Shown piece by piece: positions 35,293 through 37,064 of a DNA stretch of 41,598 nt (position 1 is its first letter; each line of letters starts with the position of its first letter). The notes beneath the pieces were generated by a model. That model worked only from the letters and a program-made list of their open reading frames with translations, was not told where the DNA came from and did not search any database. This DNA comes from Christensenella sp. UBA941 (GTDB taxonomy: Bacteria; Bacillota; Clostridia; Christensenellales; UBA941): the NCBI GenBank assembly GCA_002293365.1, contig DBDD01000334.1, positions 1-41,598 of the forward strand, in the 5' to 3' direction. Both the position numbers and the translations under genes were made by a program.

Positions 35293-36078
35293 TCATGCTG
35301 AAATACCGAACAAATCGTAAATCTCGCGCGGAATCTTTCGGCAAGCATTACCGTATAGCGGATTGAACGCATAGCAGACGGAATCCCCGGATTTCAGCCT
35401 TGCGATAATGCTGCACTTAGCCATCCTCGCCAAGCATTCTTGCGCTTTTTTCTCTACAATGCCGAAAAGGGCGGCTATGTCTTTAAGCGTAAACGCTTCA
35501 CCCGACTTCCCGATGATGTTTGTATCCTGCATGATTGTTTCGCGAAGCTTAAAAGCTCTCACAAGGTCGATACCGGCTAAACCCACATCGCACAACCGAT
35601 AAACGTTATTTATCCCGACATACGACCGCCCCTCGTCGATAATCCCGCCGCCGATTTTGTCATTCCAGAACTTCGCGCTAGGAGTGCTTGGCATAATACC
35701 GGCTCTAAGCTTCTCGATCTGCTCATGAACGGCGGGAACGTCCGAAAACCATTCGCCGTGCAAGGCGTGCTCGTCCAATGTCTTGTGCAATGCGCTTTCA
35801 AGCCGCACGCCCCCAATCATAGAGTACAGGATTCGCAACTCATATGGATGGGCCGTTTGCAAACTGCGTAATCGCTTGGGGAGGTTCGTGGTATAGCCTA
35901 TTTTTATTGGGCCTCCGTTAACGGCCTGAATGAAATATACAACGCCTTTGTCGCTTTCCGCTTTATCGTGCGTCGAATCGAAAAGGATTTCGTCTGTCTC
36001 CGGGTCTTTAAGGCGAAAATTGGCGGGCAGTGGCGTAACGTCACCATTTGCCCGAAGGATTTTGTATGTGTTGCTCAT
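35293..36078 (-). CDS. T5orf172 (GIY-YIG-superfamily) domain protein with C-terminal wHTH-like region
   Basis: VVYFIQAVNGGPIKIGYTTNLPKRLRSLQTAHPYELRIL...LHGEWF. ATG at 36078 (ATGA overlap). Confidence 0.7.
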   Translation of the reverse strand: MSNTYKILRANGDVTPLPANFRLKDPETDEILFDSTHDKAESDKGVVYFIQAVNGGPIKIGYTTNLPKRLRSLQTAHPYELRILYSMIGGVRLESALHKTLDEHALHGEWFSDVPAVHEQIEKLRAGIMPSTPSAKFWNDKIGGGIIDEGRSYVGINNVYRLCDVGLAGIDLVRAFKLRETIMQDTNIIGKSGEAFTLKDIAALFGIVEKKAQECLARMAKCSIIARLKSGDSVCYAFNPLYGNACRKIPREIYDLFGISA

Positions 36079-37064
36079 TTGCCGTCCTCCGCTACCCGCT
36101 CGTATCCCTTCTCGCATTCAGCCCGAATGGCAATCCCGTTCTTTTCACATTTGAACAATATCTCGGAAATACTTCTTTGCCCTAAATTGTGAATCCGCGA
36201 AAGCTTTTCTAGGGTGGTGTCTGCAAGTTCCTGCACCGTCTTTATCCCATTCCTTGTAAGGCAGTTATACGACCTGACGGTTAAATCCAAAACCTCTATA
36301 GGATGATTCAACTCGTCGTTCTCGCGTATGCGCTCCTGAACAGCAGAAAACCTCTCTCTCCGCCTCTCTGCTTCAACCGCTAATTCGGCCACACGCCTTT
36401 TTGATTCGATTTCGGCCTCTTCCTTTCTCGCCTTGACAATTTCGGCCTGTACCATGATTCCGTTTTTAAGCATTTCCGCTCTGTCGCGATAACGCAATTT
36501 CCTAAGCGCCTTGGCCTCTATTTGGCGTATACGTTCCCTCGTCAGATTGAATTGCTCCGCCAATTCGTCAAGCGTCGATTCATCTTTCACCCTGCCGATA
36601 ATCACAATTTTTTCGCGCGGAGTAATCGTGTCAAGGACGCGCTCTATCGTTTCTTCAACGTCGTGCGGCATATCATCGTAGTTCTTTTCTCCAAATACGG
36701 CGCAATATAGCGATTCTGGCCAAACCGGTTTGTACTGTATAAATTTGCGCACCCTCGGTTCACCTTTGCTTCTTGGCTCCCTTGCAGCTTTATTGACATG
36801 TCGGCTAAACAGAAGCGACAACCGTTGCTTATCCATGCCAATCTTCTCGGAAATTGCTGATAGCGACGCTCCCTCGATTAACATATTTACCGCCGTAAGA
36901 TGCTTTTCAAGCTCGTCGCGCCATTTCTCCGCATCTTCCCTTGTGATATTGGCCGTTGCATCGAGATATCCGAGAGTTTTCCTGTACTCGCTTATACATT
37001 CGGGACAAACGACCTGCTTATTCCTTGTTGCGGAAAAGGTCACGCCACAATGTAAACATGTCAT
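36075..37064 (-). CDS. multidomain transcription-factor-like protein: Zn ribbon, HTH, sigma-70 region 4 and RpoA alpha-CTD-like domain
   Basis: CLHCG...CPEC. [13 protein letters not shown]...[24 protein letters not shown] is sigma region 4.2-like. [47 protein letters not shown] is alpha-CTD-like. Confidence 0.8.
   Translation of the reverse strand: [329 protein letters not shown]

Follow-up and report, generated by a model that had tools for sequence, protein, structure and literature searches.

A phage genome from the termite gut encodes one polypeptide in which region 4 of a σ70-type factor is followed by the RNA polymerase (RNAP) α subunit's C-terminal domain (α-CTD). The genome is represented by contig DBDD01000334.1 (assembly GCA_002293365.1, Christensenella sp. 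UBA941), the whole 41,598 nucleotides of which are referred to below as the window. The fusion gene occupies 36075..37064 on the minus strand, opening with an ATG at 37064-37062 and closing with a TGA at 36077-36075, and its product is complete at 329 amino acids (aa). Judged from sequence comparisons, the fusion is a new, apparently undescribed architecture made of known domains, and it sits within a large family. The function we favor, at a probability a little short of even, is that of a self-contained protein that would bind the upstream (UP) element and the -35 hexamer of promoters and compete there with the host σA holoenzyme.

Two promoter-reading domains of RNAP in one phage protein

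Region 4 spans aa 136-201 (36462..36659, minus strand) and comprises subregions 4.1 and 4.2 and the C-terminal helix, with predicted local distance difference test (pLDDT) scores of 96-98. Pfam Sigma70_r4 matched aa 143-191 (E = 9e-15; 54.4 bits against a cutoff of 24.1), and NCBIfam aligned aa 134-203 to the C-terminal ends of RpoD models and to no other part of them. In a PDB sequence search, the best matches for this portion were to region 4 of Thermotoga and primary σ factors. BLASTP against authentic E. coli rpoD found the recognition helix identical at 17 of 17 positions to σ70 residues 583-599, and R603 is also kept. Relative to primary σ factors, the fusion protein has a four-residue deletion in the turn between 4.1 and 4.2. 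No GerE match was obtained for the protein at E ≤ 1 and region 4 models scored far better, which argues against an effector helix-turn-helix (HTH) of the LuxR/GerE type.

The α-CTD, a helix-hairpin-helix fold, covers aa 253-312 (36129..36308, minus strand). Pfam RNA_pol_A_CTD matched aa 246-304 (E = 1.4e-20; 73.2 bits, cutoff 23.8). Only the C-terminal ~80 positions of the NCBIfam rpoA models aligned (64 bits against cutoffs of 228-523), and the B. subtilis α-CTD was the best PDB match for this part of the sequence. By BLASTP against E. coli rpoA, the fusion protein retains the equivalents of R265, N268, C269, N294, G296, and S299 and has arginine in place of K298. Two AlphaFold2 models were built, one of the full-length protein (14 sequences, pLDDT 79) and a deeper one of the core, aa 105-329 (78 sequences, pLDDT 91.3). 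The predicted region 4 superposes on σ chains at about 1.1-1.7 Å, and the α-CTD superposes on B. subtilis 1z3e_B with a template modeling (TM) score of 0.94 and a root mean square deviation (rmsd) of 0.8 Å.

A first-pass annotation, made from the DNA letters alone, had already proposed σ region 4.2 and an α-CTD in a single phage protein. That proposal is confirmed: both domains lie far above their Pfam cutoffs, NCBIfam, the PDB search, and BLASTP concur, and the models superpose on σ region 4 chains and on the B. subtilis α-CTD. The interval it gave, 36075-37064, holds up as an open reading frame (ORF); the coding strand is the minus strand, differing from that account, and the plus-strand frame across the interval is riddled with stops. 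The annotation had also considered that a sequencing frameshift might have merged two genes. The identical 329-aa product is encoded on seven contigs from several termite-gut data sets (SRR797682, SRR797685, SRR5322548, and ERZ922779), and the fused architecture is kept family-wide, recurring in hundreds of relatives; a frameshift, a chimera, and an assembly artifact are therefore ruled out.

Conservation among 78 family members is concentrated on the residues that read DNA. In region 4, the equivalents of the -35 readers R584, E585, R586, R588, and Q589 are kept in 69, 76, 78, 75, and 78 members, respectively. For the α-CTD, the corresponding counts are 78, 77, 72, 76, 78, and 68 for R265, N268, C269, N294, G296, and S299, and the K298 position is lysine or arginine in 70. 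Protein-contacting surfaces are retained as well. Region 4 surface residues K593, R596, K597, R599, H600, P601, and R603 are kept in 62-77 of the 78 (R603 in 66), and most members carry acidic residues at α positions 259 and 261, which form the "261 determinant" in contact with σ R603; both sides of this known contact between region 4 and the α-CTD are thus retained. Residues lining the β flap groove of region 4 stay hydrophobic (the F563 equivalent is Y, F, or W in 77 of 78, L598 is kept in 73 of 78, and the L607 equivalent is hydrophobic). The "287 determinant" of α, used by CRP, and the 315-318 activator surface are not conserved in the 78 members.

The structural matches included PDB 3N97, in which an α-CTD and σ region 4 are seated on UP/-35 DNA as in the holoenzyme. 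The folds are the same (α-CTD rmsd 0.6-0.9 Å), and the fusion protein shares with the holoenzyme unit the identical recognition helix, the DNA-contact residues, and both partners of the contact between R603 and the 261 determinant. Unlike the holoenzyme, it is one phage polypeptide without σ regions 1-3, the α N-terminal domain (α-NTD), or the rest of β, and because these are absent it cannot be a part of the polymerase. A true σ factor was rejected, as region 4 alone was matched and Sigma70_r1, r2, and r3 gave no match in Pfam or NCBIfam; a true α subunit was likewise rejected, given the lack of a Pfam match to the α-NTD and the purely C-terminal alignment to rpoA models. For region 4, NCBIfam and PADLOC both gave MzaA of the MZA defense system as the best match. 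The NCBIfam score is 70.3 bits against a cutoff of 800, the match covers the last ~70 residues of a ~700-aa σ70-like protein that has no α-CTD, and PADLOC agrees that the similarity is limited to region 4, so this assignment was rejected. The defense component PglW was also rejected, the match being at the domain level only.

A large family with a shared core

The first-pass annotation treated the protein as a one-off; it is instead a member of a large family with a core of about 210 aa, consisting of an N-terminal motif, a variable loop, region 4, a linker, and the α-CTD. The window's protein has the defining feature of this family, region 4 and then an α-CTD, with neither σ region 2 nor an α-NTD. 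A profile search of 1.84 billion cluster representatives at 50% identity retrieved 2,070 clusters at E ≤ 1e-30. Because primary σ factors, through region 4 alone, reach just E ~ 1e-23 on the family profile (about 100 bits), most of the 2,070 must carry more than one profile domain, and at 50% identity the family would comprise some thousand clusters or more. Both domains were present in 143 of the best 150 profile matches, in the order motif, region 4, α-CTD in 99; other arrangements among these 150 had two to five α-CTD repeats or the reversed order. A separate word-indexed homolog search turned up some 15 metagenomic proteins, all unnamed, in which the two Pfam domains occur together. Three candidates (L097, L102, and L133) were rejected as ordinary RpoD or RpoA.

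No model for the family exists in PHROGs, NCBIfam, Pfam, or PADLOC, the GenBank phage collection contains no record with the two domains together at a single location, and ten family clusters that were looked up bore no name beyond "hypothetical protein". A description of the family was not found in the full-text literature, a search outside which the Iyer and Aravind 2012 survey (PMC3769190) falls. The earlier statement that no characterized protein has this architecture therefore stands, neither the literature nor the curated family libraries having yielded anything specific to it. Stand-alone phage α-CTD proteins (~130 aa, annotated as the C-terminal part of the RNAP α subunit) and region-4-only proteins do exist (BFVD; Bacillus phage Goe8), with one domain each, and no functional study of either kind was found in the literature searched.

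The core is frequently extended. Added N-terminal domains include a Cro/C1-type HTH_3 (L008, L013, and L019) and a MerR/Xis-type HTH_17 (L010 and L016). P0008 has a second region 4-like HTH at the N-terminal position, and P0020 has a Cys/His pattern that looks SWIM-type by eye and was not confirmed by Pfam. Superfamily 2 helicase domains (ResIII/DEAD) are fused in P0127, P0137, and P0208, an SNF2 helicase is combined with α-CTDs only in P0125, three Spo0A_C domains accompany region 4 and four α-CTDs in P0121, and P0190 is a complete σ factor with extra α-CTDs. Since the fusion partners are DNA binders, DNA motors, and promoter readers, they fit a module that finds promoter DNA. In two rumen or gut viral contigs, the fusion gene runs at its end into an overlapping gene for an SNF2-related helicase (10714..12129 in L001 and 4897..6312 in L002), an arrangement that mirrors the one-chain proteins P0127, P0137, and P0208 and is, by analogy, a hint that the module and DNA translocases are functionally linked. 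At the other extreme, a viral contig encodes a 127-aa minimal member (L085, 4927..5310) consisting of region 4.2, a short linker, and an α-CTD; as it has neither the motif nor the long helix, these elements are not strictly required for the fusion. Among the relatives there are also giants of 1,000-1,580 aa with α-CTD arrays (P0122, P0121, P0174, and P0215), of which P0122 has eight α-CTDs; their sequences suggest multivalent promoter-DNA-binding proteins.

All 17 loci examined are phage-like, and 13 IMG/VR viral contigs encode true fusions. The genes around the homologs encode methylases, Mom, RecT/SSB, Lar, and an SNF2-type helicase; elsewhere the position is 2 kb upstream from a terminase gene. 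No neighboring or partner gene is conserved across the 17 loci, so the fusion gene appears to act alone.

A conserved motif ahead of region 4 weakly resembles the β flap tip

Nearly all short members carry the motif [YWF]-P-x-N-L-x-x-x-[IV]-[FL]-G-E located 16-40 residues before region 4. In the fusion protein, the motif lies at aa 115-127, and the two short helices to which it belongs span aa 115-131 (36672..36722, minus strand). It resembles the RNAP β flap-tip helix EEKLLRAIFGEK (E. coli β 898-909), which is clamped by region 4 through contact residues L901, I905, and F906 (PMC10216364, PMC7892883). We built a position-specific scoring matrix (PSSM) from 77 members, excluding the fusion protein, and scanned E. 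coli RpoB, RpoC, RpoA, and RpoD (3,691 residues). The sole outlier was LLRAIFGEK, beginning at RpoB L901, at 15.9 bits (the next RpoB window scored 5.5 and the best elsewhere 7.4); as a caveat, the nine-column window was picked after the resemblance had been seen. Divergent members are sometimes nearer to the flap tip, such as P0241 with EELLWLDIFGEK. One relative is a complete σ factor and has to rely on the genuine flap; upstream of its region 4 the motif is missing.

In the deep model, the motif helices form blocks of mean pLDDT 92-95, implying an ordered element packed on region 4. Covariation between the motif and region 4 is weak; its top pair, A122-V159 (rank 9 of 4,283), involves the equivalent of σ70 F563/σ32 W244, a position listed as a flap contact (PMC10216364), and other motif couplings land on the C-terminal helix of region 4. 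The motif is a candidate mimic of the β flap-tip helix, the resemblance in sequence being weak. We put at roughly even odds that it docks in cis in the flap groove of region 4. Chimeras of σ region 4 with the flap tip that were engineered for crystallography (PDB 3T72, 7KUF/7KUG, and 8CWR), which were among the sequence and fold matches, likewise hold a flap-tip-type helix in the same chain and, by analogy, show that a design of region 4 with a flap tip in cis can work. In the chimeras, a genuine β helix lies C-terminal to region 4, whereas the fusion protein has a natural, weakly similar helix on the N-terminal side with a putative docking mode.

An N-terminal add-on and a long linker helix

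The first-pass annotation divided the remainder of the protein into a zinc ribbon, an HTH-like segment, and a charged coiled coil, the first two of which are weakly supported. For the zinc ribbon, the CxxC...CxxC pattern is present (C3, C6, C22, and C25, within aa 1-28; 36981..37064, minus strand), but Pfam Zn_ribbon_8 reached only 14 bits against a cutoff of 34.4 and pLDDT was 50-59. The possible HTH at aa 42-93 (36786..36941, minus strand) is confidently helical, with four helices at pLDDT 83-91, yet HTH_35 stayed below its cutoff (21.8 against 25 bits) and a Pfam scan of aa 1-104 alone gave no match. Absent from most relatives, which are ~210 aa, the zinc ribbon and N-terminal helices are by sequence a lineage-specific add-on. 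The N-terminal 104 aa showed no homology to the zinc-ribbon/HTH_17 N-terminus of L010.

The charged segment between region 4 and the α-CTD was modeled as a single long helix at aa 203-252 (36309..36458, minus strand; pLDDT 88-98). In 78 aligned short members this linker measures 45-84 aa and is mostly one long helix, and L085 and P0020 are among the few other members with a shorter one. The family's heptad contrast was 0.62 compared with 0.43 ± 0.105 for shuffles, the fusion protein itself scored 0.575, and 51% of sequences exceeded the 95th percentile. While the heptad signal is moderate, it suggests that the helix is a probable coiled coil and hence that the protein may be an oligomer.

A proposed competitor of the σA holoenzyme

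As we picture it, the fusion protein would be a free-standing copy of the upstream-promoter-reading part of the holoenzyme. Region 4 would read a TTGACA-type -35 hexamer and the α-CTD an A/T-rich UP element, with neither domain connected to the catalytic core because σ regions 2 and 3 and the α-NTD are missing. The motif helix may fill the flap-tip groove of region 4 in cis and so keep the domain stable and soluble without polymerase, and the probable coiled coil of the linker would form a dimer presenting two region 4 domains and two tethered α-CTDs. Such a protein would occupy strong host-type σA promoters along with the phage's own early promoters and would be dominant negative against the holoenzyme; genes read by the phage's extracytoplasmic function (ECF)-like σ factor would escape inhibition. 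The N-terminal zinc-ribbon/helical add-on might supply extra targeting.

A number of considerations favor this proposal. The near-invariance of the DNA readers across phages points to recognition of host promoter DNA, as a protein binding phage-specific operators would be expected to drift. Moreover, with both readers kept and every link to the core missing, competition with the σA holoenzyme would be the simplest consequence. Also in its favor are the retention of both sides of the R603/261-determinant contact, the structural match to 3N97, fusion partners that bind or move along DNA, the evidence on the motif, the phage-like character of all loci without a conserved partner gene, and the precedent of a phage protein, gp67, directed at UP-dependent promoters. 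The first-pass annotation had also offered a promoter-upstream competitor, and this suggestion remains the one we favor, with DNA binding, cis-docking of the motif, oligomerization, and a repressive outcome as the steps that we infer from sequence and models.

Several observations weigh against it. Isolated region 4 and α-CTD bind DNA weakly, and to compete effectively the protein would need avidity. A rigid 50-residue helix would hold the two domains about 75 Å apart (estimated at 1.5 Å per residue), so side-by-side docking as in 3N97 would require a fold-back or a dimer. Many members have a separate sequence-specific HTH, which also fits an ordinary site-specific regulator. Composite sites with an AT-rich tract and a -35-like element show no enrichment in the phage genome (9 compared with 4.8 ± 2.4), so that this search yielded no target for the fusion protein. 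For the motif, the top covariation pairs as a whole contained no excess of pairings with region 4, and a phmmer search of the motif segment against the PDB did not retrieve RpoB, the top match being an unrelated repeat protein. When the single E. coli 13-mer was used, 32 of 145 proteins had their highest-scoring site within the motif window (shuffles: mean 7.3, maximum 27); in this control the scores were no higher than those of shuffles, and the result is marginal.

Exact TTGACA is mildly enriched in the window, occurring 27 times compared with 16 ± 3.9 in dinucleotide shuffles, none of 100 of which reached 27; the sites are scattered within genes, three of them inside the fusion gene (36433, 36629, and 36793). 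A σ70 promoter scan of the window was at chance level (19 versus 15.8).

A more ambitious version of the competitor proposal holds that the ~210-residue module rebuilds the entire upstream-promoter-reading face of the holoenzyme from look-alikes of three polymerase subunits (a β flap-tip-like helix capping region 4 in cis, σ region 4 itself, and the α-CTD), is dimerized by its coiled coil much as α dimerizes, and is a dominant-negative occluder of σA promoters that has been reused to deliver helicases, Spo0A-type domains, and whole σ factors. We regard this extended version as doubtful.

Among the alternatives, an upstream activator or bridge is an unlikely one. The domains would then bind beside the host holoenzyme, touch its region 4 and α-CTD, and stabilize polymerase at selected (phage) promoters in a class I-like manner. 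Conservation does extend beyond the DNA readers to protein-contact residues (R603, K593, R596, K597, and acidic 259/261), the long linker would reach across roughly two turns of the DNA helix, the extra site-specific HTH of many members could anchor the protein at particular promoters, and in the relative that is a complete σ with extra α-CTDs the domains clearly assist initiation. A phage-specific activator, however, needs no family-wide primary-σ recognition helix, and no recurrent upstream arrangement of TTGACA and AT-rich sequence was found in the phage genome. An ordinary site-specific regulator of the replication or early operon would have borrowed generic modules and drawn its specificity from the N-terminal domain (zinc ribbon/HTH in the fusion protein, an HTH of the Cro/C1 or MerR type in relatives). 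We hold this to be quite improbable. Such a regulator would be suited by the translational coupling of the fusion gene, within a replication-side module, to genes for RepL/DnaD-like winged-helix and T5orf172 proteins, as well as by the HTH_3 and HTH_17 add-ons (L008, L010, L013, L016, and L019) and by the placement of homologs amid recombination, methylase, and helicase genes. Most members, though, are about 210 aa and lack an extra DNA-binding domain, no neighboring gene is conserved, and near-invariant primary-σ specificity residues would not be expected if operators differed between phages.

Two further explanations turn on protein partners. Less probable again is an RNAP-binding factor whose region 4 docks on the host β flap, like a minimal σ or T4 gp33, and displaces or supplants that of host σ, with the α-CTD redirecting polymerase and the motif serving as an autoinhibitory plug or binding host σ region 4 in trans in an anti-σ-like manner. 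The conservation of -35/UP readers would go unexplained, the flap site would be blocked if the motif occupies the groove in cis (pLDDT 92-95), and partners are wanting: no σ2-only protein is encoded nearby, the phage σ is complete, and no partner gene is conserved. What speaks for it is that the groove residues of region 4 remain hydrophobic, that binding of host σ region 4 by a helix of flap-tip type is conceivable, and that minimal single-HTH σ factors have been noted in jumbo phages (PMC7824862) and gp33-type flap binders are encoded by phages (PMC7892883). Least probable, in our estimation, is a protein decoy whose σ region 4 and α-CTD surfaces soak up host activators (such as Spo0A or Spx), anti-σ-like proteins, or defense sensors; the first-pass annotation had likewise raised the trapping of activators. 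The activator-contact residues K593, R596, K597, R599, and H600 are conserved though they do not read bases, and the α-CTD is nearest to the B. subtilis domain crystallized with Spx. Against a decoy stand the DNA-contact residues, which are the most conserved and which a protein acting purely as a decoy could do without, together with the lack of conservation at the 287 determinant and the 315-318 activator surface; no candidate ligand was found, and the PADLOC match to MzaA is at the domain level only.

Competition with σA holoenzyme on DNA would set the fusion protein apart from known phage takeover factors. S. aureus phage G1 gp67 is said to selectively block UP-dependent promoters. This protein binds host RNAP via the σ subunit (PMC3694059), and T4 AsiA acts in σ appropriation (PMC6755090). 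Both gp67 and T4 AsiA/MotA are, like the fusion protein as proposed, takeover factors that work at the -35/UP end of the promoter. They bind the host polymerase and are unrelated to the fusion protein in sequence and fold, whereas the latter consists of homologs of the polymerase's own DNA-binding domains, with DNA as its predicted site of action. If true, this would be a different takeover strategy, since known factors bind or modify the host polymerase, and a common one, with some thousand clusters or more, all of them nameless and unstudied. The family offers a natural experiment on the degree to which region 4 and the α-CTD by themselves account for promoter affinity and specificity. It also bears on whether region 4 needs a flap-tip-type helix for folding or DNA binding and on the region 4–α-CTD contact off the enzyme. 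Should the protein shut down σA promoters in Bacillota, it would be a compact genetic tool and a lead toward growth inhibitors, and, to judge from the helicase, Spo0A, and full-σ fusions, the module may be a portable "go to promoters" unit that is more broadly useful.

Genomic setting

The window is a siphovirus-like phage genome in which nearly all genes, among them those for terminase, portal, major head, tape measure, and tail fiber proteins, lie on the minus strand. No nucleotide match or close relative was found for it among GenBank phages, and there was no terminal direct repeat of at least 40 bp at the contig ends and no sign of circular closure. The fusion gene belongs to a replication-side module that is presumed to be early. 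Upstream, at 37061..37432 (minus strand), a 123-aa winged-helix protein is encoded that is HTH_36/RepL-like and matches PHROG families of replication initiators or DnaD-like proteins; the TGA that ends its gene and the fusion gene's ATG overlap as ATGA. Downstream, at 35293..36078 (minus strand), a 261-aa protein with a T5orf172/MUG113 domain, whose PHROG matches include an endonuclease family, has an ATG (36078-36076) that overlaps the TGA of the fusion gene, again as ATGA, and the two genes are translationally coupled. A DUF1643 protein gene (34011..34787, minus strand) comes after the T5orf172/MUG113 gene, and an HNH endonuclease gene (38695..39282) lies upstream of the fusion gene. By eye, an extended -10 promoter-like site is visible at 37781..37809 (minus strand), in an AT-rich gap upstream of the operon. 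It reads TTGTTT (37809-37804), 17 nt, and TGcTAGAAT (37789-37781), and it was missed by the consensus scan because its -35 element matches at only three of six positions.

The phage also encodes a σ factor at 26614..27183 (minus strand), with which the first-pass annotation had suggested that the fusion protein might cooperate. Nothing links the two. The σ factor is complete and ECF-like (Sigma70_r2 plus r4_2; phrog_351) and, having its own region 4, needs no fusion protein. Its gene lies 9 kb from the fusion gene, just upstream of the small ORFs that precede the terminase large subunit gene (24361..26061), and no neighbor is conserved in the 17 loci; a functional link is thus without support. 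The position of this σ gene is where one for a late-gene σ would be. Between the portal and terminase genes, a tRNA-Thr gene (anticodon TGT; 24124..24199) lies on the plus strand, opposite to nearly all phage genes.

A low-GC stretch at 6000..9600 (45-49%, compared with about 53% elsewhere) is possibly a regulatory or switch region. It contains the only large plus-strand gene, that for an anti-repressor, Ant (8770..9549), and three exact TTGACA sites (6198, 6286, and 6341). Near the start of the window are genes for a Hoc-like head-decoration protein with an immunoglobulin-like (Ig) domain (418..1623, minus strand) and a collagen-like tail fiber (1620..2771).

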